Numbered from the stretch's first letter, positions 17,096 to 43,617 are shown. The stretch is DNA of 64,000 nucleotides from an uncultured Chloroflexia bacterium (GCA_963713075.1 CAVQKO010000006.1:644408-708407), one strand, 5' to 3'. Program-made: numbers and translations. The notes: generated from the letters alone by a model not told the origin.

Positions 17096-17247
17096 GCCCA
17101 CAGGGTGCCAGACGGCGCGGCTCGCGGATAGCCCCCCGAGGTCGTTCGACCGGCCGGCCGAGCGGTCGCTTGCAGCCGGCGCCCGTGCCGGGCGGAAACG
17201 CCTCGAGACCCCTTGACGCTCTAGCGGATGGGCGTCATCATGCTCAT

Positions 17248-17259
17248 GTAATCGATTGC
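17248..17259. promoter_or_regulatory. Palindromic operator GTAATCGATTGC (IolR/LacI-type candidate) 21 nt upstream of iolB
   Basis: This is one of five copies of the consensus GTAATCGATTAC found at iol promoters in this window. Confidence 0.55.
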
Positions 17260-17279
17260 CGAGCACGAAGGAAGACTGG

Positions 17280-18170
17280 ATGACCTCTGTTCCCACGGTC
17301 GGCAACCCTGCTCCTGCCATCGATCCCCCGGGGGCCGCGCGGCATCTCCTCCGCCGCGCGGCCCGCCCGGACGCCAACGGCGTCATCAGCCACGTCGATC
17401 CCGACAGCGCGGGCTGGGACTGGGTGACCGTCACGGTCCACCGCCTGGCCCCCGGCGAGACGGTCACCAGTGCGGCCGACGACCAGGAGCGCCTCGTCCT
17501 GGTGCTCGAGGGGTCCGCGGCCGTGACCGCGGGCGCACTGTCCCTCGACCGCGTCGGCTCGCGCGACAGCGTCTTCGACGGCCCGGCATCGCCCGTCATC
17601 CTGGTCGCCCCCGGCGACGCGGTCCGCGTGACCGCGGCAACAGACGCGCTGGTTGTCGTGGCCGCGGCGCCCGGCGGCGAGGTCCGGAGCACCCGCTACA
17701 TCGCCCCCGAGGACGTCCTCGTCGAGGCGCGAGGGGAGGGGAACACCGCCCGCCGGATCCACCACCTGATGGACCCGCAGATGGAGGCGGGCCGCCTGAT
17801 CGCGTTCGAGGTGTACACGCCGGGCGGCAACTGGAGCAGCTACCCGCCCCACAAGCACGACACCGAGAACCCGCCGGTCGAGGCCTATCTCGAGGAGCTG
17901 TACTTCTACCGCTTCGCCAAGCCCGGCGCCTTCGGCTTCCAGCGGGTCTACACCGCCGACCGCTCGCTCGACCAGTCCATGGCCGTCGGCGACCTCGACA
18001 TGGTCCTCGTCCCCGAGGGCTACCACCCGTTCGGCGCCCCCGCGGGCTACGACGCCTACTACCTCAACATCATGGCCGGGCCGAACCGCGCCTGGCACTT
18101 CACGATCGACCCGGACCACGCCTGGCTGATGAACTGGTCCCCGGCGGCGCCGGCCGCCGCTCAGGGCTGA
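17280..18170 (+). CDS. iolB: 5-deoxy-glucuronate isomerase
   Basis: Has an IolB-type cupin with the YPPHKHD motif. ATG at 17280 is preceded by GAAGGAAG. The upstream TTG at 17256 overlaps the operator. Confidence 0.8.
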   Translation: MTSVPTVGNPAPAIDPPGAARHLLRRAARPDANGVISHVDPDSAGWDWVTVTVHRLAPGETVTSAADDQERLVLVLEGSAAVTAGALSLDRVGSRDSVFDGPASPVILVAPGDAVRVTAATDALVVVAAAPGGEVRSTRYIAPEDVLVEARGEGNTARRIHHLMDPQMEAGRLIAFEVYTPGGNWSSYPPHKHDTENPPVEAYLEELYFYRFAKPGAFGFQRVYTADRSLDQSMAVGDLDMVLVPEGYHPFGAPAGYDAYYLNIMAGPNRAWHFTIDPDHAWLMNWSPAAPAAAQG

Positions 18171-18176
18171 CGGCTT

Positions 18177-18195
18177 GTCAGACTGGCAATCGATG
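18177..18195. promoter_or_regulatory. Operator-like CAATCGATGATCGATGATC (two overlapping ATCGAT half-site cores) upstream of the transaldolase-family gene
   Basis: Shares the AATCGAT core with the other four sites. Confidence 0.45.
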
Positions 18196-18238
18196 ATCGA
18201 TGATCTGAGGGCAAGAGCTGCCCGCCGATGGAGGCCCC

Positions 18239-19339
18239 ATGACGATGACCGTTGCGACCGCCGCCAGCCCGCTCGCGAGGATGGTCGAGACCACCCCGAC
18301 CGACTTCTGGAACGACTCGTGCGCCGTCGCTGAGCTGGAGTACGCGGTCGCCCGCGGCGGCACTGGCGCCACCTCCAACCCGACGATCGTCGGCGAGGTG
18401 ATGAAGAAGGAGAAGGACCACTGGGTCCCGCGGGTGCGCGAGATCGCCGCCGCGAACCCCAACTGGTCCGAGGTGGAGATCACCTGGCAGCTGATCGAGG
18501 AGATGGGCGTCCGGGGCGCCTCGATCCTGCAGCCGGTGTTCGAGGCCCACGACCGCAGGAAGGGCCGCCTGTCGCTCCAGACGAATCCCGCCAACTACCG
18601 GACGCCCGACCGCATGGTCGAGCAAGCGGTCCGCTTCAGCACCCTCGCGCCAAACATCCAGGTCAAGTTCCCGTGCACGGCCGAGGGCCTGGTGGCGGTG
18701 GAGGAGGCCACCGCGCAGGGCGTGGTCGCCAACATCACGGTGGTGTTCACCGTGCCGCAGTGCATCGCCGCGGCCGAGGCGGTCGAGCGGGGGATCCGGC
18801 AGTTCGAGGCCGCCGGCGGCGACTCGAGCCGGATGTCGCCCGTCTGCTCGCTCATGGTCGGCCGCCTCGACGACTGGATGAAGGTCCTCGTCGAGCGCGA
18901 CTCCATCGCGCTCGACCCCGCCGCCTCGAGCTGGGCCGGCGTGGCCGCATTCAAGCGGGCCTACGGCATCTACCAGGAGCGCGGCTACCGCACCCGGCTG
19001 CTCGCCGCGGCCTACCGGCACCGTCTGCACTGGACCGAGCTCGTGGGTGCCGACGTCGTGCTCACGATGCCCTACGCCTGGCAGGTCCGGTTCAACGCCT
19101 CCGGCATCGACCCGACGCCGCGCATCGACGTCCCGGTCGAGCAGGCCCTGATCGACGACCTGCTCGAGCGGGTCCCGGACTTCCGGCGCGCCTACGAGCC
19201 GGATGGCCTGACCCCTGCTGAATTCGTGACATACGGCGCCACCGCGCGGACCTTGCGCGGCTTCGTGGCCTCATATCACGATCTCGTCGGCGCGGTCAGG
19301 GATATCGTTCTACCCAACCCGGACGCCAAGGCAGGCTGA
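18239..19339 (+). CDS. Transaldolase-family protein (class I aldolase fold)
   Basis: Has the TSNPTIV motif and an actinobacterial-type length (366 aa). It lies between iolB and iolA with an iol-type operator upstream. Confidence 0.75.
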   Translation: MTMTVATAASPLARMVETTPTDFWNDSCAVAELEYAVARGGTGATSNPTIVGEVMKKEKDHWVPRVREIAAANPNWSEVEITWQLIEEMGVRGASILQPVFEAHDRRKGRLSLQTNPANYRTPDRMVEQAVRFSTLAPNIQVKFPCTAEGLVAVEEATAQGVVANITVVFTVPQCIAAAEAVERGIRQFEAAGGDSSRMSPVCSLMVGRLDDWMKVLVERDSIALDPAASSWAGVAAFKRAYGIYQERGYRTRLLAAAYRHRLHWTELVGADVVLTMPYAWQVRFNASGIDPTPRIDVPVEQALIDDLLERVPDFRRAYEPDGLTPAEFVTYGATARTLRGFVASYHDLVGAVRDIVLPNPDAKAG

Positions 19340-19388
19340 GCCGCCGCTCGCGTCCCGCAAACAACAAACGCTGTACTGGAGGCACCTG

Positions 19389-20915
19389 GTGGCCATCGAC
19401 ACCCCCAACGAGGCGGCTGTCCTGCCGATCCTCAGTCACTACATCAACGGCACCGCGGTCGAGGTCCTCCCCGACGCCACCGGTCCGGTCTACAACCCGG
19501 CGACGGGCAAGGTGATCGCCCGCGTGCCGCGCGGCGGCCAGACCGAGGTCGATGCCGCCGTCGAGGCCGCGAAGGCCGCCTTCCCGGCGTGGGCGAGCAT
19601 GCCGCTCATCGCCCGCAGCAACATCTTCTTCAACTTCCGCGCGCTCATGTACGAGAACCGCGAGGAGCTGGCCCGCCTGATCACCCGCGACCACGGCAAG
19701 ACGTTCCCCGACGCCCTCGCCGAGGTCCTCCGCGGCATCGAGACCATCGACTTCTGCTGCGGCCTGCCGCTCCACCTCTCCGGCATGAACACGCCGAACG
19801 TCTCCACCAAGGTCGACACGTTCACCATGCGGGCCCCGCTCGGCGTGGTGGCGGCGGTCACGCCGTTCAACTTCCCGGTCATGGTCCCGACCTGGATCTA
19901 CCCGGTCGCGCTCGCGGCCGGCAACACCGTCATCCTCAAGCCGTCCTCCCACACCCCGGGCGCCACGCAGCTTCAGGCCGAGCTGTGGAGCCAGGCCGGC
20001 GGCCCCGCCGGCACGTTCAACATCGTCTACGGCGGCAAGGAGGCCGTGAAGGCGATCGTCGAGCACCCCGACATCAAGGCGATCCAGTTCGTCGGGTCCA
20101 CCGCGGTCGGCCGCTACGTGTTCGAGGAGGGCACCCGCCACGGCAAGCGGGTCGGGTCCTACACCTCGGCCAAGAACGCGATGCTCGTCCTGCCCGACGC
20201 GGACCTCGACCTCGTCGCTGACGCGGCGGTCGCGGCGGGCTTCGGCTCGGCGGGCGAGCGCTGCATGGCCCAGACACTGATGGTCGCGGTGGGCGACACC
20301 GGCGAGAAGCTCCGCCCCAAGATCCTCGAGCGGATCGCCAACCTCAAGATCACCGACGGCATGGAGCCGGGCGCCGACATGGGCCCGATCTACTCCGCCG
20401 AGCACCGCGAGTCGGTGGTCAAGTGGATCGGCGTCGGCGAGGCCGAGGGCGCCGAGCTGGTGGTCGACGGCCGCACGTTCGTCGGCCCCAATCCCGACGG
20501 CTACTTCCTGGGCGTCTCGCTGTTCGACAACGTCACCCCGGACATGAAGATCTACCAGGAGGAGATCTTCGGCCCGGTGTTCGGCATCGTCCACGCCGCG
20601 ACGTTCGACGAGGGCCTCAAGCTCATCAACGACCACAAGTACGCCAACGGCACCGCGGTCTTCACCACCGACGGCGGCGCCGCGCGGCGCTTCAAGCTCG
20701 AGGTCGATGTCCCGATGATCGGCGTCAACGTGCCGATCCCGGTGCCGGCCGGCTTCATGAGCTTCTCCGGCTCCAAGGAGTCCGCGATCGGCGACCTCCC
20801 GATGCGCGGCGAGGACGGCATCCGTTTCTGGACCCAGCAGAAGATGGTCACCGAGCGCTGGCCCGAGCCCGGCAAGCAGGGCCCGCTCTCGCTCGTCTTC
20901 CCCGGCAACTCCTAG
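19389..20915 (+). CDS. iolA: Methylmalonate-semialdehyde dehydrogenase (CoA-acylating)
   Basis: Has ALDH-superfamily motifs (FNFPVMVP, GSTAVG, catalytic Cys in GERCMA). The product is 508 aa and sits in an iol context. Confidence 0.85.
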   Translation: MAIDTPNEAAVLPILSHYINGTAVEVLPDATGPVYNPATGKVIARVPRGGQTEVDAAVEAAKAAFPAWASMPLIARSNIFFNFRALMYENREELARLITRDHGKTFPDALAEVLRGIETIDFCCGLPLHLSGMNTPNVSTKVDTFTMRAPLGVVAAVTPFNFPVMVPTWIYPVALAAGNTVILKPSSHTPGATQLQAELWSQAGGPAGTFNIVYGGKEAVKAIVEHPDIKAIQFVGSTAVGRYVFEEGTRHGKRVGSYTSAKNAMLVLPDADLDLVADAAVAAGFGSAGERCMAQTLMVAVGDTGEKLRPKILERIANLKITDGMEPGADMGPIYSAEHRESVVKWIGVGEAEGAELVVDGRTFVGPNPDGYFLGVSLFDNVTPDMKIYQEEIFGPVFGIVHAATFDEGLKLINDHKYANGTAVFTTDGGAARRFKLEVDVPMIGVNVPIPVPAGFMSFSGSKESAIGDLPMRGEDGIRFWTQQKMVTERWPEPGKQGPLSLVFPGNS

Positions 20916-21019
20916 ACCGATCGGCGGCCGGCGCGCCCATAACTCCGGGGCGCGCCCGGCTCACCGTCGCTTCGTGAAGGCGCCGTCCTCGGACGGCGCC
21001 TTCTGCATGCGCGAGGCCT

Positions 21020-21250
21020 TCGCCGGGGTGCCCCCCAGGGGCGTCGCGACCGCGCCCCCGCGGGCTAGCCTCGGGGCCCCCGCCCGGCTTGTTCCACCGG
21101 GCGCGACCGCGCCCCCGAGGGCCTGCCTCGGGCCCCCGCCCGGCTTGTTCCACCGGGCGCGACCGCGCCCCCGAGGGCCTGCCTCGGGCCCCCGCCCGGC
21201 TTGTTCCACCGGGCGCGACCGCGCCCCCGAGGGCCTGCCTCGGCGCCACC
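21020..21250. repeat. Tandem repeat array, 57-bp unit in about 4 copies (gggcccccgcccggcttgttccaccgggcgcgaccgcgcccccgagggcctgcctc)
   Basis: Three identical copies plus degenerate flanking copies are visible directly in the sequence. Confidence 0.8.
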
Positions 21251-21446
21251 GTCCACCGGGTGGGTGAACGGTGCGCTGCCCGCACATTCGGCCCACCTGG
21301 CGGGTGGCCGGTGCGGTGCCGGGCGCTGAGATGACCCGCGAATGCACAGTCGAACCGCCCGGCGGCCGATGCGTGCGCCGCCCGCACCGTTTAGCCGCTG
21401 GGTGGCTGCCGGGCAACATCCCCGGCACCGCGCCGCGGCGGCCCGG

Positions 21447-21800
21447 GAGGATGGCTGGCCTCCCCCATGGCCGGCCCAGTCTGCTTCCGCGATTCGCGAA
21501 CGACCCGGAAAGCGCCCGAATCCCGCGATGTTGCCCGCGGCCCGGGACCCCGGCCGGCCCGATCCCCCCAGGGCCGGCCCAGTCTGCTTCCGCGATTCGC
21601 GAACGACCCGGAAAGCGCCCGATTCCCGCGATGTTGCCGCGCGGCCCGTGAGGATGGCCGGCCCGATCCCTCCTGGCCGATCCGGCCCGATCCGCTTCCG
21701 CGTTTCGCGAACGACCCGGAAAGCGCCCGAATCCCGCGATGTCGCCCCGACGCGCCGGCCGGGCCGAGCCCCGCGATGTCGCCCCGACGCGCCGGCCGAG
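21447..21800. repeat. Tandem repeat array, about 103-bp unit in 3 copies, each containing a TTCGCGAA palindrome (…cttccgcgattcgcgaacgacccggaaagcgcccgaatcccgcgatgttgcc…)
   Basis: Three near-identical units at about 21471, 21574 and 21677, the last degenerate. The array is intergenic between iolA and a divergent or convergent Gfo gene. Confidence 0.8.
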
Positions 21801-21813
21801 CCGGGCCCCGCCC

Positions 21814-22932
21814 TCACCCCTCGCCCGAGGCGATCTCGGCGATCGAGACCCGGCGGCCATCGCGCGCGCTCAGAACCGCGGCGTCGACGATCCGCTGGTT
21901 GGCCAGGCCGTCGGCGAGGTCGGGCTTGACGGGCTGACCCGCTGCCACGGCCGAAACGAATGCCCGGCCCTGGGTCTCCTGGTGTCGGAAGACGTGCTTG
22001 TAGGTCGCGTGGACGTCATCGCGTGGCGCGCCGCCCCAGCAGCGGTCGGGGATCGGGAGGTCGTGCACGGCGGCCTCGTCAGCTCGCGCCCCGCTGACGA
22101 CCTGGAGCCGGTTCCAGTCGTTGACGTGGTGGAGGGTGCCGGCCGAGCCGTGGAGCTCGACGGCCTGGAGCTGGTTGAACGAGGACGGCTCGTGCGCCAG
22201 CGACGACACGTGGAGGTTCCCGGTGGCGCCATTCACGAACCGCAGGAGGATGACTGCGGCATCCTCGCCTCGCGGGTAGTCGGTGCCGTCGGGACGGGCG
22301 GCTCTCGGGACGCTCACGCCGAACTCGGCCGTCACCGCCTCCACCTCTCCGAAGTACCACGATGCGTAGTAGGCGAGGTGCGATCCGAGGTCACCCGCGA
22401 GCGCCGCTCCGGCCACGTCGAGGTCGAACCGCCACATGTAATCGCCGCGCCGGCCGTAGCCGGCGAAGTACCGCATGTTGAGGTGGTACGGCTGCCCGAG
22501 GTATCCCTCCTCGACGAGCTCCTTGAGGTACCGCATCCCGGGCATGTTCTTGTAGGTGAACGGCACCATCGTGGTGAGGCCCCTGGCTGCGGCGAGGTCG
22601 GCCAGCTGCCGCGCCTCGCGTGACGACATCCCAACCGGCTTCTCGCACAGGACGTGGAGCCCGCGTTCGAGCGCTGCGTGAGCGATGGGATAGTGGGACC
22701 GGTTGGGCGTGGCGACGATCAGCGCGTCGAGCCGCTCGCGCTCGAGCATCTCCTCGACCGTGTCGTACGGCTTGCCGATGCCCCACTTGGCCGCGAACTC
22801 GCGGGTGTGCTCGGGCCGAGTGCCAGCAACCGCACGCAGGTCCGCCAGCGGATGGGTCGCGATCGCCGGCAGGTACATCGAGTCGGCCCACCAGCTGGTG
22901 CCCGCGATGCCGATCCTGACCTTGTCAGCCAT
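21814..22932 (-). CDS. Gfo/Idh/MocA-family NAD(P)-dependent oxidoreductase
   Basis: The N-terminal Rossmann fold (VRIGIAGTSWWA) and EKP motif (VLCEKPV) are typical of inositol or sugar dehydrogenases. Confidence 0.8.
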   Translation of the reverse strand: MADKVRIGIAGTSWWADSMYLPAIATHPLADLRAVAGTRPEHTREFAAKWGIGKPYDTVEEMLERERLDALIVATPNRSHYPIAHAALERGLHVLCEKPVGMSSREARQLADLAAARGLTTMVPFTYKNMPGMRYLKELVEEGYLGQPYHLNMRYFAGYGRRGDYMWRFDLDVAGAALAGDLGSHLAYYASWYFGEVEAVTAEFGVSVPRAARPDGTDYPRGEDAAVILLRFVNGATGNLHVSSLAHEPSSFNQLQAVELHGSAGTLHHVNDWNRLQVVSGARADEAAVHDLPIPDRCWGGAPRDDVHATYKHVFRHQETQGRAFVSAVAAGQPVKPDLADGLANQRIVDAAVLSARDGRRVSIAEIASGEG

Positions 22933-23249
22933 GTCGCCTCCTCGCGCTCAGCCGGAACCGTGTCACGTCGGACGACCCGCGGTCCACCCGGCGCGTCGAG
23001 CATCGCCCCAATGCCACGGCTCAGGAATTTATCGAGGAACCCGAACTGCCGCCGCGGAGCCCGACGGCCCCGCCCGTCGGCGCCATACAGTCGCCGGGCG
23101 CATGCAAGGCGGGCCGGGCTGGCCGAGGGAAGGCGGTCGACGCCGAATCGACGCCTGATCTCTGCCTCCTACGCCCCGAGACTGGATGGCGCGGAAACGG
23201 CCGCCGGTTCCCGCCGAGCAGTCGTCCCACGACTGGATGGCGCACCCGC

Positions 23250-23400
23250 GGCGCGGACACCCGGCGCGTCGACGGATCCGCGGCGCGGCCGCCCGGCGAG
23301 GGTTCCGCCCCGCGTCGAGCGAACGGCCACCCGCCCCGCGTCGAGGGCGCGGCCGCCCGGCGAGGGATCCGCCCCCGCGCCCCGGGGAACCGCCACTCCG
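23250..23400. repeat. Degenerate direct repeats (cgcgtcgag…ggccgcccggcgaggg[at]tccgcc, about 3 copies)
   Basis: Seen directly in the intergenic region between two minus-strand genes. Confidence 0.5.
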
Positions 23401-23403
23401 TCG

Positions 23404-24303
23404 CTAGACCCCGATCGACCGCAGGTACTCCCGGTTGCGCCGGGCGCTCTCGCGCGGGTTGCCCATTCCCGGAAGCACGTCCTGCTCGACGACAATCCAG
23501 CCCCCGTAGTCGATGTCCGCGAGCGCCGTGAGCATGCCCGGGAAGTCCACGGAGCCCTTGCCCAGCTCGCAGAACACCCCGCGGCCCACGGACTCGGGTC
23601 CGCTGAGCTCGTCGGAGCGCGAGGCGGCCATGATGGCCGGGTCGGCGTCCTTGAAGTGGACGTGCCACACGCGGTCGCGGAACTCGCGCACGGCCGCCAC
23701 CGGGTCGCCGCCGGCGCCGAAGGTCCAGTGGCCGGTGTCGAGGCACAGGCCCAGCACCGACGGGTCGGTCATGTCGAACAGCTTGCGGGCCTCGGCCTCG
23801 GTCTCGATCCAGGTCCCGATGTGCTGGTGGACGACCGTCCGGATCCCGGCCTCGTCCCACACGCGTTTGGCGACGTAGTTGGCGCCGTCGGCGAGGACCT
23901 TGAACTGCTCGTCGGTGAGGGCGTCCTCTGGCCGGACCCGGCCGGCGATCGTGGTCCGGCACGGATCGCCGTAGGGGTCGTTGCCGAGCACGACGACCGC
24001 GTCCTTGCCGCCGACGCGGGCGAGCTGCTTGCCCGTCCGCACGGCGTCGTCGGCCGAGCTCTGGTGCCTCGAGCGGTCGTGCAGCCAGACGCTGACCCAG
24101 GAGCCCACGAGCGCGAGTCCGCGCGCGTCGAGCTCGCCCCGGAGCTGGTCGGGGTCGGTGGGCATGAAGCCCCAGTCGCCGAGCTCGGTGCCGGCGTAGC
24201 CGGTCTCGGCCATCTCGTCGATGACCTTCACGTAGCCGGCGGTCTCTCCGTCGATGCCCTCGATCACGCCCCACGAGCAGGGCGCGTTGGCGATGCGAAC
24301 CAT
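23404..24303 (-). CDS. Sugar-phosphate isomerase/epimerase (xylose-isomerase-like TIM barrel; IolE/IolI-like)
   Basis: The protein is about 299 aa with TIM-barrel metal-site H/D/E residues (HVHFKD, LDTGH). Confidence 0.7.
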
Positions 24304-24375
24304 CTGCTGTCTCCGATGAACTCGCCGGCTTTCGTGCCGGCACGGTGTCTGGTGGCCGCCGGTGGCGACAGGGCG

Positions 24376-25419
24376 TCAGGCCCGGGCGCCTCCTGGGGCG
24401 ACTGGGCCGGTGGACTCGCGAACCTGCAGCACCATCGGGACGCGGATGGTCTCGGGGGCGATGCCGCCCTCACCGGCGTCGAGCATCGTCAGCAGGCGCT
24501 CGACGGCCATTCGGCCCATCTCCGCCTTCTGCTGCGCGACGGTGGTGAGGGACGGCACGATCCAGGATGCGGCGGCGATGTCGTCGCAGCCGACGACGCT
24601 GATGTCGTCGGGGACGCGGATCCCGGCGGCCCGGAGCGCCCGCATCGCCCCGATCGCCGTGATGTCGTTGTGGCACGCGATCGCTGTGACGTCGGTCCCC
24701 GCGGCGAGCAGCTCGGCCACGGCCTGCTCGCCGCCCTCGAAGAGCGCGTCGCCGTGCAGTTCGACGATCGCGGACGCCGCAATTCCCGCGGCCTCGCAGG
24801 CGGCCCGGAAGCCCTCGATCCGCGGCACGTCCGCTGTGATGCCGTCGAGGGCGCGGATGTAGGCCAGGCGCCGGTGACCGAGACCGATGAGGTGCTCGGC
24901 CACCATGCGCATGCCGGTGCGGTTGTCGCTCGTGATGACGGTGATGGGCACACTGGCGGGCTCGGCGTTGACGACCACGACGGGCACGGGGCTCTCGGCC
25001 AGCCATCGCCAGCTCTCGTCCGACACCTGGCTCGAGGCCACGATCATCCCGTCGACGCGCCGATCGGCCATCAGGTCGAGGTAGTGGACGGCGCGGTGCT
25101 CGTCGAAGGCAGCCGAGCCGAGCAGGATCGAGTAGCCCACGTGGCGGGCAGCGTCGTCGGCGGCCCTGACCAGCTCCGGGAAGAACGGGTTCTGGATGTC
25201 GGTGACGATCAGCCCGAAGGTGTGGGTCCGGCGCATCCGCAGGGACCGGGCCACGGCCGACGGGCGATAGTCGAGCGCCTCGACGGCGGCCATGACCGCG
25301 TCGGCCGTCTCCGTCTTGGGGTTCCCGATTCCGGCGAGGACTCGGCTCACCGTCGCGGTGGAGACGCCCGCCATCCGCGCGACGTCGCGGATGGTTGCGG
25401 GTCCGCCGCGCTCCCTCAT
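24376..25419 (-). CDS. LacI-family transcriptional regulator (candidate repressor of the iol regulon)
   Basis: The HTH is at the N-terminus (IRDVARMAGVSTATVSRVL) and is followed by a periplasmic-binding-fold sugar-binding domain. Confidence 0.85.
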   Translation of the reverse strand: MRERGGPATIRDVARMAGVSTATVSRVLAGIGNPKTETADAVMAAVEALDYRPSAVARSLRMRRTHTFGLIVTDIQNPFFPELVRAADDAARHVGYSILLGSAAFDEHRAVHYLDLMADRRVDGMIVASSQVSDESWRWLAESPVPVVVVNAEPASVPITVITSDNRTGMRMVAEHLIGLGHRRLAYIRALDGITADVPRIEGFRAACEAAGIAASAIVELHGDALFEGGEQAVAELLAAGTDVTAIACHNDITAIGAMRALRAAGIRVPDDISVVGCDDIAAASWIVPSLTTVAQQKAEMGRMAVERLLTMLDAGEGGIAPETIRVPMVLQVRESTGPVAPGGARA

Positions 25420-25565
25420 GCCCGGGTCACCTCGCGGCAGCCATCGGCTTCGACCGGCCGGCTGCCTGCCGCATCGCCCGTGGTTCCCGTGCGCCGCATC
25501 AGAATTCCCTCCGGAGCCTCCGCGGCCTCCGCCATGCGTCGGCCGTTCTCCAATGTCGTGCGAGC

Positions 25566-25577
25566 GTAATCGATTTC
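25566..25577. promoter_or_regulatory. Operator GTAATCGATTTC upstream of the LacI regulator gene (possible autoregulation)
   Basis: Matches the palindromic consensus with one mismatch. Confidence 0.45.
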
Positions 25578-25800
25578 GCAGCCTAGTGGACGCGGTGGCG
25601 CGGCGTCAAGGCGACAACATCACAATTGTCGACAACATCACAATCGCCTCGAGCGGTGTCGCGCGATGGCTGCAACCGCATGCGCCTTCGCCCCGCCCGC
25701 GCTCCTCGGAGCCCCAGACGGCTCGCCCATCTCGCGACCTGGCCGGCAGTCGGCGGTCTGACCCATCTCCCGACGTGGCCTGCCCTCGGGGGACCAGGCC

Positions 25801-26793
25801 TCAGCCGACCTTGACCACCCGGCCGGTCGCGACGCTCTCGTTCGCCGCCTCGGCGAGGACCAGGGCGGCCCGGCCGTCGGCGAACCCGACCGACGGGGCG
25901 CGGTCCGCCTTGACCGCCGAGACGAACTCGTCGAGCTCGGCCCTGAACGCCGGCATGTACCGCTCGAGGAAGAAGTTGAGGATCGGGCCCGCGGCCTCGG
26001 TCCGGGTCGCGCTGGCCGCCCGGACGGTCGTGGCGGTCCAGTTGCCGGCCTCGAGCGAGCCCAGGTCGCCGAACGCCTCGAGCCGCTGGTCGTAGCCGTA
26101 CGCGCAGGAGCGGCTGTTGACGATGGTGCACAGGGCGCCCGACGCCGCCCGCATCGTCAACATCGCCTGCGCGTGGTCACCGGCCTCCCTGAACGCGTCG
26201 AGGCCATTGTCCGACGCGACCGCGGACACCTCGACGATGTCGCCCAGCTGGAAGCGGGCCATGTCGAAGTCGTGGATGGTCATGTCCTTGAACATGCCGC
26301 CCGACACGCCCAGGTACGCGGCGGGCGGGGGCTGGGGGTCGCGCGACGTGATGCGCAGCGCCCGGACGATGCCGATCTCGCCCTGCTCGACACGCGCCTT
26401 GACCTCCCGGTACGACGGGTCGAACCGGCGGCAGAAGCCGAGCATCACGAACGGCGCCCTGGGCGCGATCTCGGCCCACGCGGCGTCGACCTCGGCCAGG
26501 TCGAGGTCGATCGGCTTCTCGAGCAGGATCTTCTTGCCCGAGTCGACCGCGCGGCGGAGCATGTCGATGTGGGTGTTGGTCGGCGTGCCGATCACGACCG
26601 CGTCGATCGAGGCGTCGCTGAAGGCGTCCTCAGGATCGAGACTCCACGTCGCGCCGTGCTTGGCGCCGAGCGCCGAGGCGGCCGACTCGATCGGATCGAC
26701 GACCAGGGCCAGCTCGGCCTCTGGGTTCTGGCTGATCGAGGTCGCGTGGACCTGGCCGACCCGGCCAGCCCCCAACATCGCGATGCGGAGCAT
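25801..26793 (-). CDS. iolG: Inositol 2-dehydrogenase (Gfo/Idh/MocA family)
   Basis: ATG at 26791-26793 with an AGGAGG RBS. The N-terminus is MLRIAMLGAGRVGQVH and an EKP motif is present. The product is 330 aa. Confidence 0.8.
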   Translation of the reverse strand: MLRIAMLGAGRVGQVHATSISQNPEAELALVVDPIESAASALGAKHGATWSLDPEDAFSDASIDAVVIGTPTNTHIDMLRRAVDSGKKILLEKPIDLDLAEVDAAWAEIAPRAPFVMLGFCRRFDPSYREVKARVEQGEIGIVRALRITSRDPQPPPAAYLGVSGGMFKDMTIHDFDMARFQLGDIVEVSAVASDNGLDAFREAGDHAQAMLTMRAASGALCTIVNSRSCAYGYDQRLEAFGDLGSLEAGNWTATTVRAASATRTEAAGPILNFFLERYMPAFRAELDEFVSAVKADRAPSVGFADGRAALVLAEAANESVATGRVVKVG

Positions 26794-26943
26794 GTGCGGT
26801 GCCTCCTGGTGAACCTCGTCGGGGCGCAGCGCAGACGTGCCGCTGCCGGGTCGGAGTTGACGAACTGGCCACGATCCGAGCCCCGCCGCCACCCGGCGGA
26901 ATCCGCGCGAGGGTTGCGCCCGAGGGTCCGATCGGTCTAGAGT

Positions 26944-26955
26944 GTAAACGATTAC
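26944..26955. promoter_or_regulatory. Operator GTAAACGATTAC in the divergent iolG/iolD promoter region
   Basis: A near-perfect palindrome centred between the two divergent genes. Confidence 0.55.
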
Positions 26956-27034
26956 CGACGCTAGTGCACCCCTGTTGTCCGGCGCTGACCCGCCTGGGCT
27001 CCAACCTCCGCGGTTCCTTGAGAGGAGGCTCCCG

Positions 27035-28915
27035 TTGTCCACCATCCGGCTGACGGTCGGACAGGCGATCGTGCAATTCCTGGCCGCCCAGTACGTCGAG
27101 CGCGACGGCGTCGAGAACCGCTTCATCGCGGGCGTGTGGGGCATCTTCGGGCACGGCAACGTGGCGGGCCTCGGCCAGGCCCTCGAGGAGCTGGGCGCGG
27201 AGTACGAGATGCCGTACTACCGGCCGCAGAACGAGCAGGCCCAGGTCCACCTCGCGTCGGCCTACGCCAAGCACAAGAACCGGCTCCAGACCTTCGCCTG
27301 CATCAGCTCGATCGGGCCCGGCGCCACGAACATGGTCACCGGCGCCGCGCAGGCCACCGTCAACCGCCTGCCAGTCCTGCTGTTCCCGTCGGACTACTTC
27401 GCGAACCGCCTCCCCGACCCGGTGCTCCAGCAGGTCGAGCACCCGGTCGAGCACGACGTGTCGGCCAACGACGCGTTCCGCCCGGTCAGCCGCTATTTCG
27501 ACCGGATCAGCCGCCCGGAGCAGCTCCTCTCCTCGCTCCCCGAGGCCTTCCGCGTGCTGACCGACCCCGCCGAGACCGGAGCCGTCACGGTCGCCCTGCC
27601 CGAGGACGTCCAGGCCGAGCCCTACGACTGGCCGGAGCGCTTCTTCGAGAAGCGCGTGTGGCACGTCCGCCGGCCGGTGCCCGAGCCGGCCATCCTGGCC
27701 GAGGTCGCGGACCTGGTCCGCGCCGCGAAGAAGCCGCTGATCGTCGCCGGCGGCGGCGCCATCTACTCGGGCGCCGAGATGGCCCTCGGCGCCTTCGCCA
27801 CCACGTACGGCATCCCGGTCAGCGAGAGCCAGGCTGGCAAGGGCGTGCTGCCCTGGAACCACCCGATGAACGTGGGTCCGGTGGGCGCGGCCGGCGGCCT
27901 GGCCGCGAACCGCCTCGCCAAGGAGGCGGACCTGGTCATTGGCATCGGCACCCGGATGGGCGACTTCGTCACCGCGTCCAAGACCGCCTTCCAGAACGAG
28001 GACGCTGCCTTCGTCGGCATCAACCTCAACGGCTTCGACGCCCACAAGCTCCGGGCGGTGGCCCTCGTCGCCGATGCCCGCGAGGCGCTCCTGTCGCTCA
28101 CGGCGGCCCTGGCCGACCACCCCGGCACCGACCAGGCGTACCGCGACCGGATCGGCGACCTCAAGGAGGAGTGGGACGCCCGGGTCACCTTCCACCGCAC
28201 GCCGAGCGGTGAGCCGGGCGACCTGGCCCAGCCCGAGGTGATCGGCATCGTCAACGACGCGGTGGGCGGCCACGCCACCGTCGTCTGCGCGGCCGGCAGC
28301 CTGCCCGGCGACCTGCTCAAGCTGTGGCGGCCCGAGGACTCGAAGGCCTACCACCTCGAGTACGGCTACTCCTGCATGGGCTACGAGATCCCGGCCGGCA
28401 TCGGGGTCAAGATGGCCGAGCCCGAGCGCGAGGTGGTGGTCGCCATCGGCGACGGCACCTACCTGATGCTCAACTCTGAGATCGTCACCGCGGTCGCCGA
28501 GGGCATCAAGATCACCGTGGTCGTGTTCGACAACCACGGCTACCAGTGCATCAAGGACCTCGCCTGGAGCTGCGGCGTGCCCCAGTTCGGCAACGAGCTC
28601 CGCTTCCGCGAGGCCGGCACAGGGCGCCTGACCGGCGGCTACATCCCGGTGGACTTCGCCAAGCACGGCGAGGCCATGGGGGCCATCGGCGTCACGGCGC
28701 ACACCGAGCAGGAGATCCGCGACGCGCTCGCCGCCGCCCGCAACGCCGACCGCCCGACCGTCATCCACGTGCTGGTCTCGCCCGACAAGCGCGCCCCCGG
28801 CTACGAGAGCTGGTGGGACGTGCCGCCGGCCCAGGTCAGCGGCTCGGACCTCGTCGTCGCGGCCCGCGCCCGCTACGAGCAGGCCGCAACACTCCAGCGA
28901 GAGGAACTCGCCTAG
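27035..28915 (+). CDS. iolD: 3D-(3,5/4)-trihydroxycyclohexane-1,2-dione hydrolase (ThDP-dependent)
   Basis: TTG start at 27035 after a GAGAGGAGG RBS. ThDP-enzyme architecture with a GDG...N motif (IGDGTYLMLNSE). The length is typical of IolD. Confidence 0.85.
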   Translation: MSTIRLTVGQAIVQFLAAQYVERDGVENRFIAGVWGIFGHGNVAGLGQALEELGAEYEMPYYRPQNEQAQVHLASAYAKHKNRLQTFACISSIGPGATNMVTGAAQATVNRLPVLLFPSDYFANRLPDPVLQQVEHPVEHDVSANDAFRPVSRYFDRISRPEQLLSSLPEAFRVLTDPAETGAVTVALPEDVQAEPYDWPERFFEKRVWHVRRPVPEPAILAEVADLVRAAKKPLIVAGGGAIYSGAEMALGAFATTYGIPVSESQAGKGVLPWNHPMNVGPVGAAGGLAANRLAKEADLVIGIGTRMGDFVTASKTAFQNEDAAFVGINLNGFDAHKLRAVALVADAREALLSLTAALADHPGTDQAYRDRIGDLKEEWDARVTFHRTPSGEPGDLAQPEVIGIVNDAVGGHATVVCAAGSLPGDLLKLWRPEDSKAYHLEYGYSCMGYEIPAGIGVKMAEPEREVVVAIGDGTYLMLNSEIVTAVAEGIKITVVVFDNHGYQCIKDLAWSCGVPQFGNELRFREAGTGRLTGGYIPVDFAKHGEAMGAIGVTAHTEQEIRDALAAARNADRPTVIHVLVSPDKRAPGYESWWDVPPAQVSGSDLVVAARARYEQAATLQREELA

Positions 28916-28942
28916 TCCGTGTCCCGCCGTCCCGAACCAGGA

Positions 28943-29821
28943 GGAGCTGGCGTGAGGATCGCGACCGCGGTCGTCAACTGGAACAACCCGGACATCCCGG
29001 ATGTGTTCCCGTGGATGCCCTACGGCGAGGCGCTCGACCACATGGTCGAGGCCGGCTACGACGCCACCGAGTGGGGCCCGTCGATGCCGACCGACCCCGA
29101 GGAGCTGCGCGAGGCATTGGGCTCACGCGGGCTCGACCTGGTGGGCGCGTTCGTCGGGCTCGGCTTCCGGGACCGCGATCGCTGGGAGGCCGAGCTCGAG
29201 CGGGCCCTCGGCATCGCGGACTTCCTCGCCGCGAACGGCGGCAGGGTGCTGATCGCGGCGGAGGCCGGCGACGACCGCCGCCGGGGCGAGGCGGGCCACG
29301 TGGACGAGTCCCGTGGCCTGACCGGCGCGCAGTGGCGCAACCTGGGCGAGGGCCTCGAGACGCTGGCCCGCAGGGTCGGCGGGCTGGGCATGACCCTCGC
29401 CTTCCACAACCACGTGGGGACATACGTCGAGACGCCCGGCGAGACCGCGCGCCTGCTCGAGGAGACCGACCCCGCGCTCGTCGGCTGGTGCCTCGACATC
29501 GGCCACCTCGCGTTCGGCGGCGGGCGCGCGGTCGACCTGCTGCCGCGCTACGCTGGGCGCGTCAGGCACGTGCACGTCAAGGACGTGGACGCCGCGGTTC
29601 TGGCCAAGGCGACGAGCGACCGGTGGTCATTCGGGCAGGCGCTCGCGCACTTCATCTTCCCGCCGCTGGGCGAGGGGATGGCCCAGATCCCGGCCGTTGT
29701 CGACGCCCTGCAGAGCGTCGGCTACGACGGCTGGTACGTCATCGAGCAGGACACCGCGCCTGACCCGACGTCCACCGCTACCGCCAACCGCATCTATCTG
29801 GAGGGACTGCTCGGGATCTGA
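28943..29821 (+). CDS. Sugar-phosphate isomerase/epimerase (xylose-isomerase-like TIM barrel), second paralog
   Basis: GTG start after a CAGGAGGAG RBS. It lies 4-28 nt downstream of iolD. The TIM-barrel H/D/E sites include HVHVKD. Confidence 0.7.
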   Translation, partial: GAGVRIATAVVNWNNPDIPDVFPWMPYGEALDHMVEAGYDATEWGPSMPTDPEELREALGSRGLDLVGAFVGLGFRDRDRWEAELERALGIADFLAANGGRVLIAAEAGDDRRRGEAGHVDESRGLTGAQWRNLGEGLETLARRVGGLGMTLAFHNHVGTYVETPGETARLLEETDPALVGWCLDIGHLAFGGGRAVDLLPRYAGRVRHVHVKDVDAAVLAKATSDRWSFGQALAHFIFPPLGEGMAQIPAVVDALQSVGYDGWYVIEQDTAPDPTSTATANRIYLEGLLGI

Positions 29822-29896
29822 TCGTTGTGGCGCACCGGTCTGCGAAACCGCTTGAACTTCCATGGTTGACAGGCGGCTTCGACACGACTAACGTCT

Positions 29897-29908
29897 GCAA
29901 TCGATTAC
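29897..29908. promoter_or_regulatory. Operator GCAATCGATTAC upstream of the ABC substrate-binding protein gene
   Basis: Embedded in a larger inverted repeat, ACGTC…GACGT. Confidence 0.55.
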
Positions 29909-30010: not shown

Positions 30011-31081
30011 ATGGCCATCAATCGTGTGCTGCGGATCGCTGGCGCCCTGCTCGCCAGCGCCGCCATCGTGGTCGGCTGCTCGTCGAGTTCGTCGCCGAGT
30101 CCGGCCGCCAGCGGCGGCACCGGCTCCGGCACCGCTTCCGGGTGCCCGTACAAGTTCGCGGTCATTACCCACGGCGACACCGGCAGCTTCTGGAGTGTCG
30201 TCTACAAGGGCGCCCAGGACGCCTCCAAGGACACGGGCTGCACGCTGACCGAGGTCTACGGGTCGCAGCAGCAGGGCCAGGCGCAGCCTGACGACAACGC
30301 CGAGAACCAGGCGATCCAGGATGCCATCAACCAGAAGGTCGACGGCCTCGCCGTCTCCGACCACAACCCGAGCCTGATGAACCCGACCCTCGCCGGGGCC
30401 GTGAAGGCCGGCATCCCGGTCGTCCTGATCAACGCCGGCTGTGACGACGCCGACATCGCGGCCTCCGGCGCCATGACGTGCGTCGGCCAGCCGGAGTCGC
30501 TCGCGGGCAAGCAGGCTGGCGCCCGGTTCATGTCCGAGAACGCCAACAACGTCCTGTGCGTGATCCACCAGAGCGGCCAGAACCTGCTCGACCGCTGCAA
30601 CGGCATCGCGCAGGCGCTTGGCACCGGTGACACCTGCTCGACGGGCGACGCCCCGGCCTCCGGCCCGGCGTGCACTGAGCTCACCCTGAGCACGCCGAAC
30701 GCGGCGTCCAACCCGAGCGCCTCGGCCCAGCAGGTCACCGCGTACCTGCAGGCCCACCCGGGCATCAACGCCGTCATGACCCTCAACAACGCCATCGCGC
30801 AGGGCGTCCAGGCGGCGCTCCCGAGCGGCAGCACGATCAAGCTCGCGACCTTCGACCTCAACAGCTGGGCCATCTCAGCGGTCAAGGCCGGCACGCTCGA
30901 CTTCATCGTCGACCAGCAGCAGTACCTGCAGGGCTACCTGCCGATCGTCTTCCTCCAGCTCTACAAGGCCCACTACGGGGCGAGCGTCGGCGGCGGCACC
31001 ACCGTCGCGACCGGACCGCTCCTCGTGGACAAGACGAACGTCTCCAACGTGGAGGCCGGGGCCGCCGCCGGCGAGTCCTGA
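30011..31081 (+). CDS. Sugar ABC transporter substrate-binding lipoprotein
   Basis: A GGAGG RBS is followed by a lipoprotein signal with lipobox IVVGC. A periplasmic-binding-protein fold follows. Confidence 0.8.
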   Translation: MAINRVLRIAGALLASAAIVVGCSSSSSPSPAASGGTGSGTASGCPYKFAVITHGDTGSFWSVVYKGAQDASKDTGCTLTEVYGSQQQGQAQPDDNAENQAIQDAINQKVDGLAVSDHNPSLMNPTLAGAVKAGIPVVLINAGCDDADIAASGAMTCVGQPESLAGKQAGARFMSENANNVLCVIHQSGQNLLDRCNGIAQALGTGDTCSTGDAPASGPACTELTLSTPNAASNPSASAQQVTAYLQAHPGINAVMTLNNAIAQGVQAALPSGSTIKLATFDLNSWAISAVKAGTLDFIVDQQQYLQGYLPIVFLQLYKAHYGASVGGGTTVATGPLLVDKTNVSNVEAGAAAGES

Positions 31082-31143: not shown

Positions 31144-32244
31144 GTGAGTAGCGAGGAGGCGGGCGACTCTGCCATGGACGTGCCCAATCCGACCAAGCCG
31201 GCCGAGCCCGCCGGCCAGACTGAACGCGTTGTCGCTGCGCGGGTCGTGACCCGCGTCTTCCGGCGGCCCGAGGTCGGGGCGGCGCTCGCCGCTGTCGCCA
31301 TCTTCCTCATCTTCGCCCTCAACCCCACCTCGAACCCACTCTGGGTCTCGCAGGCCGGCTTTGTCGGATGGCTCACCCAGGCGTGGCAGTTCGGGATCAT
31401 GGCCGTGCCCGTCGGCCTGCTGATGATCGGCGGCGAGTTCGACCTGTCCGCTGGCGTCATGACCGGTTCGACGGCCATCGTGATCGGCCTGCTGGCCAAC
31501 GGGTTCGGCTGGAACATCTGGCTGTGCATCGCGGTGTCCGCGGTGTTCGCTCTCCTGGTGGGGCTGTTCAACGGCCTCCTCGTCGTCCGGACCAAGCTGC
31601 CGAGCTTCATCGTCACGCTGGCCACGTTCTTCATCCTCCGAGGCACGTCGGTCGGCCTCGTCGAGGCGCTCAACGCCAACAGCACGGTCGTCACGGTGCT
31701 CAACCCGCCCGCCGGCTCGGATGTGGCCAAGGCCATCTTCGGCGGCACGGTGGGGGCCGCCCCGGCCTTCCCGGTCGCCCTGTTCTGGTGGCTCGGGGTG
31801 ACCATCCTCGGGATGGTCGTCCTCTCGCGGACCACCGTCGGCAACTGGATCTTCGCGGCCGGCGGCGAGCCCAATGCCGCCCGCAACGTCGGCGTTCCCG
31901 TCGGCAGCACCAAGATCCTGCTGTTCGTCTTCACCGCGCTCGCCGCCTGGCTCGTCGGCACGATCGAGTTCACCGCCGGCATGTCGGCGGTCTCCGAGCA
32001 GGGCGTCGGCTACGAGCTCTACTACATCGTCGCGGCGGTCGTCGGCGGCTGCCTGCTGACCGGCGGGTACGGGTCCGTGCTGGGCGCCTCGATCGGTGCC
32101 GCGATCATCGGCATGGCCCTCCAGGGGGTGATCTACGCACGCTGGCCCAGCCAGTGGGGGTTCGCCTTCCTCGGGATCCTGCTGCTGTTCGGGGTGATCG
32201 TGAACGCCGTGACGTTCCGTCAGGCACAGAGGGCACGTCGATGA
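31144..32244 (+). CDS. Sugar ABC transporter permease (branched TM, CUT2-like)
   Basis: A polytopic membrane protein whose stop overlaps the next gene's start (ATGA). Confidence 0.8.
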
Positions 32245-33137
32245 CCGGGAACAACGCTCCCGCCACCCAGGCGCCGGATGGGCGGCCGGCCGCCGGCGCC
32301 GTCCCCGTGCTCGAGGCGCGCCACGTCAGCAAGTACTTCGGCAGCGTCATCGCGCTCCATGACGTGTCGCTCCAGGTCAAGGCCGGCGAGGTGACCTGCG
32401 TCCTGGGGGACAACGGCGCCGGCAAGTCGTCGCTCATCAAGATGCTGTCCGGCGTGTTCCAGCCCGACGAGGGCGAGATCCTCGTTGACGGCACCCCGAT
32501 CCGGTTCTCCGGGCCGCGCGAGGCCCGGGCACACGGCATCGCGACCGTGTTCCAGGACCTCGCCACGGTGCCGATGATGTCGGTCTGGCGGAACTTCTTC
32601 CTCGGCCAGGAGCCGACCCGGTCGTTCGGCCCCATCCGGTTCCTCGACCAGGGCCACGCCAAGGACATCATGAAGGTCGAGATGGCCAAGATGGGCATCA
32701 ACGTCTCCGACCCGAACCAGTACGTGGGGACGCTGTCGGGCGGCGAGCGGCAGGCCGTCGCCATCTCCCGTGCGGTGTACTTCGGGGCCCGGGTGCTCAT
32801 CCTCGACGAGCCGACCTCGGCCCTCGGCGTGCGCCAGTCGGGCATCGTGCTCCGCTATGTCGTCCAGGCTCGCGACATGGGCCGGGCCGTGATCCTCATC
32901 ACGCACAACCCGCACCACGCCTACCCGGTCGGCGACCGCTTCGTGCTCCTCAAGCTGGGCAAGGTGATGGGGTCGTTCACCAAGGACCAGATCACCGTCG
33001 CCGAGCTGACCCAGATGATGGCCGGCGGCGAGGAGCTCGCCCAGCTCAGCCACGAGCTGCAGCGGTTGGGGGGCGACGAGCCGTCGCTCCGCGAGGTCGC
33101 CCAGGAGCTCGCCGAGGACGCCGCCGCGAACCCCTGA
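32241..33137 (+). CDS. Sugar ABC transporter ATP-binding protein (single NBD)
   Basis: Has Walker A (GDNGAGKSS), the LSGGERQ signature and Walker B ([12 protein letters not shown]). Confidence 0.85.
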
Positions 33138-34443: not shown

Positions 34444-35451
34444 TCAGTCCGGCGGCGGCGCGGTCGAACGCCGCACGACCAGCGTGCAGGCGGTGGTGAT
34501 GGCGCTCCTGTCCTGGTCGCCCCCGATCATGGCCAGCAGCCGCTCGACGGCCAGCCGGCCCATCTCCAGGCGGGGCTGGGCCATGGTCGTGAGCGGCGGC
34601 GTGACCAGCTGCGCGAGCTCGAGATCATCGAAGCCCGCGATGCTGAGCTGCTCGGGGACCCGGATGCCGCGGTCGAGGATGGCGCGCAGACCCCCGATCG
34701 CCGCGAGGTCGTTGTAGAAGAAGATCGCGGTCGGCCGATGGGGGAGCAGCAGCTGCACGCCCTCGGCGCCGGCGTCGGCCGCCTCGCGAGCCCGGGGCGC
34801 GGCCACGAGCGCCGCGTCGACCTCGATCCCGGCCTGGCTGAGCGCCCGCTCGTAGCCGGCCTGGCGCGCCCCGCTCGCCAGCGACGCGCGGCCGATCGCC
34901 ACGTAGCCGATGCGACGGTGGCCGAGGCCGATCAGGTGCTCGGTGATCGCCATCGCGCCGGCCGCATCGTCGACCGCCACGGAGCTCGCAAGCGGCCGGT
35001 CGGGCACCAGCTCGGACCGCTCGGCGACGAACACGACCGGGATCCTCGGGTCGAGGAGGGCGTGGTTCTCGGCGAGGTTGGACGCCACGATGATCATCCC
35101 GTCGACACGGCGCTGCTGGAACATCCGGGCGACGTCGAACTCGCGCACGTCCGAATCGCGGGTGCTCGCGACAAGCAGGTGGTAGCCGGCCCTGACGGCT
35201 GCGCCCTCGATGCCGCGCATGAGGAGCCCGTTGTACGGGTCGGCGTAGTCGCGGACGATCAGCCCGAGCGTCAGCGTGCGCCGCGTGGCCAGGCTCTGAG
35301 CCGCGGCATTGGGGGTGAAGCCGGCCTCCCGGGCGAGCTCCTGGACGCGCGCCCGGGTCGCCGCGCTGATCCGGGGGTCGTCGCGGAGCGCCTTCGACAC
35401 GGTCGACGGAGCGACACCGGCTCGTCGAGCCAGCTCGTAGATGGAGTCCAC
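34444..35451 (-). CDS. LacI-family transcriptional regulator (second copy), divergent from the corrinoid operon
   Basis: The HTH is at the N-terminus (IYELARRAGVAPSTVSKAL), followed by a sugar-binding domain. Confidence 0.85.
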   Translation of the reverse strand: MDSIYELARRAGVAPSTVSKALRDDPRISAATRARVQELAREAGFTPNAAAQSLATRRTLTLGLIVRDYADPYNGLLMRGIEGAAVRAGYHLLVASTRDSDVREFDVARMFQQRRVDGMIIVASNLAENHALLDPRIPVVFVAERSELVPDRPLASSVAVDDAAGAMAITEHLIGLGHRRIGYVAIGRASLASGARQAGYERALSQAGIEVDAALVAAPRAREAADAGAEGVQLLLPHRPTAIFFYNDLAAIGGLRAILDRGIRVPEQLSIAGFDDLELAQLVTPPLTTMAQPRLEMGRLAVERLLAMIGGDQDRSAITTACTLVVRRSTAPPPD

Positions 35452-35600
35452 GGTACCTCTGGCGGAATGGCCGCTCGACGCCTTGCCCCGGGCAGGTGGG
35501 CCAAACTATACTCCGCGAAACCGGTTGAAATGCGACCGGAGACCCCGTCGAGGACGGTGGCGCCAGGCCCCGACCTCGCACCGAATCGCAGCTGTGGCCG

Positions 35601-37480: not shown

Positions 37481-37493
37481 GGACGGCCGGGCG

Positions 37494-38831: not shown

Positions 38832-38850
38832 CGCGCGCAGGAGCCCGGCG

Positions 38851-40820: not shown

Positions 40821-40856
40821 GGCCGGCCGTGGCCGACCCCGCGACCACTCGACCTG

Positions 40857-43487: not shown

Positions 43488-43617
43488 GCGTCCCTCGTCG
43501 GTTCCGCCCGGGGTCGGCCCGGCGCCGGGCGCCCAGTGTCGCACCGGACGGCCCGGTCGAGCCGAGCCATCCGGCAGGTTGTTGACAGTTTACCGTCCCC
43601 GCCAGCGGACACGCCGG

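Follow-up and report, generated by a model that had tools for sequence, protein, structure and literature searches.

Candidate operators shared by inositol-catabolism promoters and the gene of a LacI-family regulator in an uncultured Chloroflexia bacterium

The 64,000-nucleotide (nt) stretch CAVQKO010000006.1:644408-708407, from the assembly GCA_963713075.1 of an uncultured Chloroflexia bacterium (hereafter the window; G+C content 72.7%), contains a cluster of inositol-catabolism (iol) genes, an ABC transporter and, among them, a gene for a LacI-family regulator (Table 1). The products of iolB, iolG, iolD and mmsA pass the cutoffs of NCBIfam equivalog or subfamily models, and those of the iolE-like gene and the binding-protein gene fail them. 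The regulator possesses both an N-terminal LacI helix-turn-helix and an effector domain (PF00356, PF00532 and PF13377, found in the protein and in its cluster), and its full-length NCBIfam alignments to RbsR, PurR, CytR and GalR all remain below the equivalog cutoffs. Four near-palindromes of 12 bp, referred to here as O1 to O4, are present in promoters of the iol genes and of lacI itself, as is characteristic of LacI systems. Judging from sequence comparison, these very probably serve as operators for the product of the LacI-family gene at 24376-25419, which would repress the iol units through them. As O3 is situated between the divergent iolG and iolD genes, the four operators are predicted to serve five transcription units: iolB-tal-mmsA, lacI-TIM barrel-Gfo oxidoreductase, iolG, iolD-iolE and the ABC transporter, taken to be of the inositol type. 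The gene order lacI-TIM barrel-Gfo is conserved in related loci.

The pattern G[TC]AA[TA]CGATT[AGT]C has exactly four matches in the window, compared with 0.02 expected from dinucleotide-preserving shuffles of the window, and its core AAWCGWTT occurs at these four sites and nowhere else in the 64 kb (0.17 expected). All four sites are intergenic. Their consensus, G-T/C-AATCGATT-A/G-C, is a near-palindrome of even length with a weak extension to tG...Ca, and the central CG is invariant across the four. The original prediction spoke of a perfect palindrome. Each window site is in fact one mismatch removed from the perfect form, GTAATCGATTAC, to which only 2 of 195 sites in related genomes conform, the commonest form there being GCAATCGATTAC. 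The O1 12-mer is found unchanged upstream of iolB in related loci. When the window is scanned with a position weight matrix, the four sites score 22-26 bits and everything else at most 6.5 bits (the best such match, at 55382, is coding); the matrix was built from related-genome sites preselected for AA..CG..TT, making these scores somewhat circular, and the gap below the four sites is still large.

Five matches to the pattern had originally been claimed. Those at 17248, 25566, 26944 and 29897 are confirmed, and the fifth, upstream of the transaldolase-family gene (tal), is not. It had been placed at 18177-18195, about 10 nt away from the actual position of the sequence concerned (GGCAATCGATGATCGATGATC, at 18185-18205). 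Its best 12-mer, GCAATCGATGAT at 18186-18197, breaks the otherwise invariant TT and scores 4.7 bits, no better than the coding match at 55382, and it forms part of an insertion between iolB and tal that is absent from five close relatives (alignment A3). This insertion carries a new iolB stop codon, a short ATCGATG repeat (ATCGATGATCGATGATC), one good half-site and, in a consensus scan, a weak promoter-like match, TTGTCA-18-GATGAT. The genes iolB and tal overlap by 4 nt in L059-L061, the closest three of the relatives found via the transaldolase-family protein (90-92% identity), and are 12 nt apart in L003, L044 and L053. The insertion is judged to be lineage-specific sequence that holds a half-site and no conserved operator. 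A good site, ATAATCGATTAT, is present between iolB and tal in the related locus L016, making an internal iolB-tal operator conceivable in the lineage.

Many close relatives of the regulator are found in public data, some of them in genomes named Candidatus Limnocylindrales. The comparison set consisted of 53 loci from Limnocylindrales/Chloroflexota bins, one genome per species, with LacI orthologues of 64-88% identity. A 12-mer counted as a site in these relatives if it contained AA..CG..TT and departed from the palindrome at no more than two positions, and the central CG is thus a selection criterion in this set. The 945 kb of related loci contain 195 such sites, where second-order Markov simulations predict 0.15; no locus is without a site, and 50 of the 53 have at least two. 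None of the 195 falls inside a gene annotated by tblastn with the window proteins. The same annotation places the regulator always among iol genes, in a gene order that is much rearranged. When sites are assigned to the genes that follow them, with those between divergent genes assigned to both, 80 belong to lacI, 48 to iolD, 27 to iolB, 18 to iolG, 17 to the binding-protein gene, 12 to tal (in loci where tal precedes iolB) and 6 to mmsA. A set of 35 sites stands before genes that tblastn left unannotated, which encode sugar-binding proteins, an MFS transporter, a short-chain dehydrogenase (SDR), a TIM barrel, iolD paralogues and transketolase. A split transketolase (N- and C-terminal subunits) follows operator sites within the iol clusters of L058 (7804-9689), L063 (5136-6970) and L043 (about 2030, minus strand), and is not found in the window.

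Auxiliary or paired sites occur in the order, with none in this window. A second site, A[CT]AATCGATTAT, lies 82-86 bp from the iolB operator in L010 (17173/17259), L026 (7478/7560), L032 (7960/8042) and L038 (17232/17315). Tandem sites 17-18 bp apart precede an alternative binding-protein gene in L010 (3275/3293), and similar ones are present in L013, L015, L018, L028, L049 and L050. Such pairs hint at cooperative binding or looping in the relatives.

The assignment of the motif to this particular regulator is based on its position before the regulator's own gene, on its nature as an even palindrome with a central CG and on its covariation with the protein. It precedes lacI in almost all of the 53 loci. 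The hinge YRPSAVARSLRM of the regulator is invariant in the orthologues, where the recognition helix VSTATVSRVL and the hinge PSA/GVARSLRM are paired with AATCGATT. Eight loci contain a paralogue (44-47% identical) with the helix VSIATVSRVL and the hinge PSGPARALAR, paired with GTAAGCGCTTAC, in which the outer bases are equal and the centre is different. This sequence lies between the paralogous lacI and a second iolD-iolE set (L007 259, L014 6115, L019 4518, L022 4468, L025 3056, L027 2732, L029 3224 and L033 3087). The second LacI gene of the window (34444-35451) encodes the recognition helix VAPSTVSKAL and the hinge PNAAAQSLAT, and a single GAAACCGGTTGA at 35517-35528 stands in front of its Gfo/corrinoid operon, 4 nt past TTGCCC-18-TATACT, in the same promoter-then-operator layout as at the iol sites. 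The palindrome AACCGGTT had been correctly located at 35519-35526, and the suggestion made at the time, that two separate regulons exist, is supported by the distinct hinge and central operator bases of this second LacI. Sequence comparison across the 53 loci likewise supports the proposal that the adjacent LacI-family protein binds a shared operator of an inositol regulon.

The sites could be genuine operators and yet be bound by another protein, either a LacI paralogue (such as that encoded at 34444-35451) or a global catabolite regulator, with the adjacent LacI acting elsewhere. Several LacI paralogues are indeed present in these loci, and the motif, as judged by its sequence, belongs to the generic LacI/GalR operator class, AANCGNTT, which is common to many LacI-family proteins: the E. 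coli gal operator OE, GTGTAAACGATTCCAC (PMC2887952), and the window sequence at 26942-26957, GTGTAAACGATTACCG, share 13 of 16 bases, among them the first 12. Binding by a different protein is nevertheless unlikely, as the motif precedes this very lacI in nearly all loci, each of the two remaining paralogue types has a hinge and operator centre of its own, and the sites are confined to iol-type genes instead of being spread over general carbon metabolism.

The four operators begin 0-6 nt past sigma-70-like -10 elements (Table 1) and would therefore overlap the predicted transcription starts, a position that suggests a repressor. The layout cTTGACg-N17/18-TAnnnT-operator recurs throughout the related loci, and a strict -35/-10 regular expression, which the lacI and transporter promoters of the window also match, is found directly upstream of 77 of the 195 sites and at 0.135% of random positions. 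Upstream of iolB, 27 related loci have TTGAC-N17-CAnnAT, as in the window, cTTGACg-N18-TAggcT is kept before lacI in the orthologous loci, and the transporter promoter is conserved in L002, L003, L004 and L044. In a seven-genome alignment of the iolG/iolD spacer (A2), the conserved positions cluster in the operator, the iolD -35 and -10 elements and the ribosome-binding sites, with scattered single invariant columns elsewhere; O3 forms an invariant block, the -35 and -10 elements each differ at one base in one relative, and the flanks are variable.

Other sequence features near these promoters were rejected as regulatory elements. A larger ACGTC...GACGT inverted repeat had been described around 29897. 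It can be dismissed as not conserved: the left arm coincides with the -10 hexamer TAACGT, and the right arm is variable in the same four relatives (L002, L003, L004 and L044). The sequence GAAACCGCTTGA (29844-29855), which lies upstream of the transporter promoter and was considered a possible target of the second LacI, scores 3.4 bits, and in relatives the GAAACCG runs into the -35 element TTGACA; it was rejected as a product of chance or of an indel. The 15-mer CGACAACATCACAAT is repeated exactly in tandem at 25612-25644, with a spacing of 18 nt, just upstream of the lacI -35 element, and is unusually A+T-rich for this genome. As a second regulatory site it was rejected, being absent from all 57 related loci compared, and it is probably a recent local duplication.

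The same promoter layout bears on whether the regulator acts instead as an activator or a dual regulator at these sites. Some LacI-family proteins do activate, and IpsA activates ino1 in response to inositol (PMC3899939). A location 0-6 nt after the -10 element, over the predicted start, is typical of repression, however, and promoters with near-consensus -35 elements (TTGACG, TTGACA) should need no activator, making activation distinctly improbable. That the 12-mer is part of the promoter or the initially transcribed region, or an element of the 5'-leader RNA, is scarcely credible in spite of its fixed short distance from the -10 element, given that it is found in either orientation with respect to the gene and is shared by divergent promoters, that a loop-less 12-nt palindrome forms no stable hairpin, that Rfam families have no matches anywhere in the window, that promoters of neighbouring non-iol genes are without the motif and that it covaries with the hinge sequence of the regulator.

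Repression by the adjacent LacI-family protein would proceed as follows. A dimer of the regulator would occupy each operator, with its recognition helices (VSTATVSR) reading the outer GTAA/TTAC bases. At the central CpG the hinge helices (SAVARSL) would be inserted, a contact that we infer here and for which the role of a conserved hinge Leu has been described in the LacI family (PMC3899939). The bound regulator would cover the transcription start and thereby repress, and through O2 it would also regulate its own gene. Inositol or an early pathway intermediate may then fill the sugar-binding domain, causing the repressor to be released. Physical binding, repression as opposed to activation and the identity of the effector are all three what we infer from the sequences.

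Several points weigh against this interpretation. All of the related loci were retrieved via the regulator, and the comparison is thus confined to loci that encode it. The scan was confined to the 64-kb window and the 945 kb of related loci. LacI-family motifs usually measure 16-22 bp, more than the 12-14 bp of these sites. With respect to the effector, inositols failed to release the LacI-family protein IolQ of Bacillus subtilis from DNA in vitro (PMC5504672). The weakest link is the control of iolG, where O3 lies about 150 nt from the start of the gene and no iolG promoter was recognised.

Table 1. Genes, candidate operators, predicted promoters and other features of the window
Feature	Position	Strand	Remarks
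Operator O1	17248-17259		GTAATCGATTGC; 26.0 bits; 6 nt past -10; ends 20 nt before iolB ATG (17280)
Operator O2	25566-25577		GTAATCGATTTC (plus strand), GAAATCGATTAC (minus strand); 23.5 bits; 2 nt past lacI -10
Operator O3	26944-26955		GTAAACGATTAC; 22.1 bits; abuts iolD -10; shared with divergent iolG
Operator O4	29897-29908		GCAATCGATTAC; 25.8 bits; 2 nt past transporter -10
Predicted iolB promoter	17213-17241	+	TTGACG (17213-17218)-17 nt-CATCAT (17236-17241); gap to operator 6 nt; consensus scan
Predicted lacI promoter	25580-25609	-	TTGACG (25609-25604)-18 nt-TAGGCT (25585-25580); gap 2 nt
Predicted iolD promoter	26914-26943	+	TTGCGC (26914-26919)-18 nt-TAGAGT (26938-26943); gap 0 nt
Predicted transporter promoter	29866-29894	+	TTGACA (29866-29871)-17 nt-TAACGT (29889-29894); gap 2 nt
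iolB (5-deoxy-glucuronate isomerase)	17280-18170	+	NCBIfam TIGR04378, 304 bits (cutoff 205)
Lineage-specific insertion, about 69 nt	18152-18220		Between iolB and tal; alignment A3; absent from five close relatives
tal, divergent transaldolase/FSA-family gene	18239-19339	+	Pfam TAL_FSA; NCBIfam transaldolase 114 bits (cutoff 367); second gene of iolB operon
mmsA/iolA (CoA-acylating methylmalonate/malonate-semialdehyde dehydrogenase)	19389-20915	+	TIGR01722, 607 bits (cutoff 448)
Gfo/Idh/MocA oxidoreductase	21814-22932	-	NCBIfam matches below cutoff; distal gene of lacI operon
IolE-like xylose-isomerase-type TIM barrel	23404-24303	-	Pfam AP_endonuc_2; TIGR04379, 185 bits (cutoff 290); downstream of lacI
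LacI-family regulator, proposed repressor	24376-25419	-	LacI helix-turn-helix and periplasmic-binding-protein-like domains
iolG (inositol 2-dehydrogenase)	25801-26793	-	TIGR04380, 368 bits (cutoff 355)
iolD	27035-28915	+	TIGR04377, 896 bits (cutoff 715)
iolE-like (inosose dehydratase family)	28919-29821	+	TIGR04379, 211 bits, below cutoff 290
ABC substrate-binding protein	30011-31081	+	Peripla_BP_4; rhizopine-type binding protein 149 bits (cutoff 420)
ABC permease	31144-32244	+	BPD_transp_2
ABC ATPase	32241-33137	+	ABC ATPase family; ATGA overlap with permease at 32241
Second LacI operon	34444-39768		lacI, then Gfo-type dehydrogenase, MtgC-like corrinoid protein, 445-residue protein, IolE-like TIM barrel
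445-residue protein	37494-38831		No Pfam, NCBIfam or PDB sequence match
Opposite-strand genes	39852-43589	-	Unknown gene (334 residues), formate-tetrahydrofolate ligase, FolD

Inositol catabolism is controlled by regulators of several unrelated families. The main iol operon of B. subtilis is governed by an IolR of the DeoR type, not of the RpiR or GntR type, and the IolR proteins of Salmonella and rhizobia are RpiR-type. The IolR of Corynebacterium glutamicum is GntR-type (PMC3899939). These systems share the logic proposed here, a pathway-specific repression of iol genes and transporters that is relieved by inositol or an intermediate, but they use unrelated DNA-binding families and operators. 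The original prediction set the motif apart from the IolR boxes (RpiR or GntR type) of Bacillus and Corynebacterium; the set of systems compared was incomplete, LacI-family inositol regulators having already been described (seven groups, and IolQ). The seven groups, predicted, non-orthologous and all named IolR, are found in Actinobacteria, Firmicutes and Proteobacteria (RegPrecise; Ravcheev et al. 2014, PMC4052901). Members include Arthrobacter AAur_1987, Streptomyces SAV_7156, C. glutamicum cg0210, Thermoanaerobacter TTE1952, IolR1 and IolR2 of Bacillales, Rhizobiales mlr1005, Rhodobacterales Jann_1424 and Hahella HCH_03302 (PMC4052901). The same study finds LacI-family sites to be, as a rule, palindromes of even length with a central CG. 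It represents Chloroflexi by three genera only, Chloroflexus, Roseiflexus and Herpetosiphon, and none of the IolR entries displayed in its supplement is from Chloroflexi.

The window regulator resembles these groups in its location in or next to iol genes, in the central-CG palindromes of iol promoters and in having been identified by phylogenetic footprinting. It differs in showing no orthology to the groups compared, as judged by protein identity: in BLASTP comparisons with nine IolR representatives the best match is 41% identical (Geobacillus GK2115) and the others 29-37%, and the unrelated second LacI of the window is 36% identical. As its identity to the IolR representatives is no better than that between paralogues, the regulator is treated here as a further, separate group, which would work like the LacI-family IolR proteins.

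Among individual LacI-family proteins, IolQ (DegA) of B. subtilis is a repressor of iolX whose sites contain AGAAARCGCTTKCK, with a high-affinity footprint from +4 to +30 (PMC5504672). It is an experimentally demonstrated LacI-type repressor of an inositol dehydrogenase gene, and its sites lie just past the transcription start, a position like that predicted for the window operators. Its sites have the centre GCGC, compared with TCGA in the window, and it controls one accessory gene, whereas control by the window LacI seems to extend to the entire pathway, the transporter and its own gene. IpsA of Corynebacterium and Mycobacterium is also LacI-type, recognises a palindrome with a central CG and is released from DNA by myo-inositol (PMC3899939), but it governs inositol synthesis (ino1, which it activates) and cell-wall genes and not catabolism. 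GalR and GalS belong to another pathway and phylum, and the likeness of the window regulator to them is at the level of the family (201-206 bits against NCBIfam cutoffs of about 555). Paired operators and looping are not evident in the window.

The contents of the regulon are of greater interest than its regulatory logic, as a transaldolase-family enzyme may take the place of IolC and IolJ. Neither a PfkB kinase (iolC) nor a class II aldolase (iolJ) was found among the scanned open reading frames of the window, and both may be encoded elsewhere in the genome; they are also absent from the gene tables of L058, L062 and L063. The tal gene adjoins iolB in most of the 53 related loci, and homologues are found in L058 (15218-16315), L062 (16111-17211) and L063 (388-1479 and 18145-19242). 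Compared with the C. glutamicum transaldolase 3r5e, the tal product keeps the Schiff-base Lys (NIQVKFPCT) and has Gln in place of the catalytic Glu (GRLSLQTN, compared with GRVSIEVD) and Met in place of Phe (SLMVGR, compared with SFFVSR). Fructose-6-phosphate aldolase likewise has Gln at the position of the transaldolase Glu.

The gene order iolB-tal-mmsA, which matches the order of the reactions, the pairing of tal with iolB, the absence of iolC and iolJ from what was scanned of the window and from the three gene tables and the retained Schiff-base Lys together with the Gln and Met changes suggest, as a tentative proposal that is somewhat less than an even bet, a kinase-free variant of the pathway. 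The tal product would cleave unphosphorylated 5-dehydro-2-deoxy-D-gluconate at the bond otherwise attacked by IolJ, yielding malonate semialdehyde for MmsA. The dihydroxyacetone unit would either be set free, as in a reaction of the fructose-6-phosphate aldolase kind, or, on the model of the sulfo-transaldolase route for sulfoquinovose, be joined to glyceraldehyde-3-phosphate to form fructose-6-phosphate, and neither IolC nor IolJ would be needed. Among the papers searched, none joins myo-inositol, transaldolase and malonate semialdehyde, or links transaldolase to inositol breakdown.

The iol cluster contains two stretches, at 20916-21813 (about 900 nt) and 22933-23403 (about 470 nt), with no family match and no open reading frame having a coding-like G+C content at third codon positions; their counterparts in L058 are about 400 and 100 nt long. 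In the second LacI operon, the predicted structure of the 445-residue protein (pLDDT, a model-confidence score, of 86) has its best matches in the MtaA methyltransferase 4ay7 and uroporphyrinogen decarboxylases (URO-D), the MtaA/URO-D fold. Distant homologues of this protein (51-52% identity) were accompanied by no corrinoid-protein gene in the two contexts examined. A corrinoid-dependent demethylation of methylated inositols is a possible function of the operon.

The system appears to be an ordinary LacI-type sugar regulon in a little-studied phylum, with a textbook logic that will not surprise the specialist. Limnocylindrales is an abundant order of soil and freshwater Chloroflexota without cultured model organisms, for which the present comparison provides an operator consensus, a promoter layout (TTGAC-N17/18-TAnnnT) and a set of regulated genes. 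These help to annotate inositol use in genomes of the order and supply parts for heterologous tests. In addition, the three LacI paralogue types, with their differing hinges and central operator bases, constitute a small natural specificity series.

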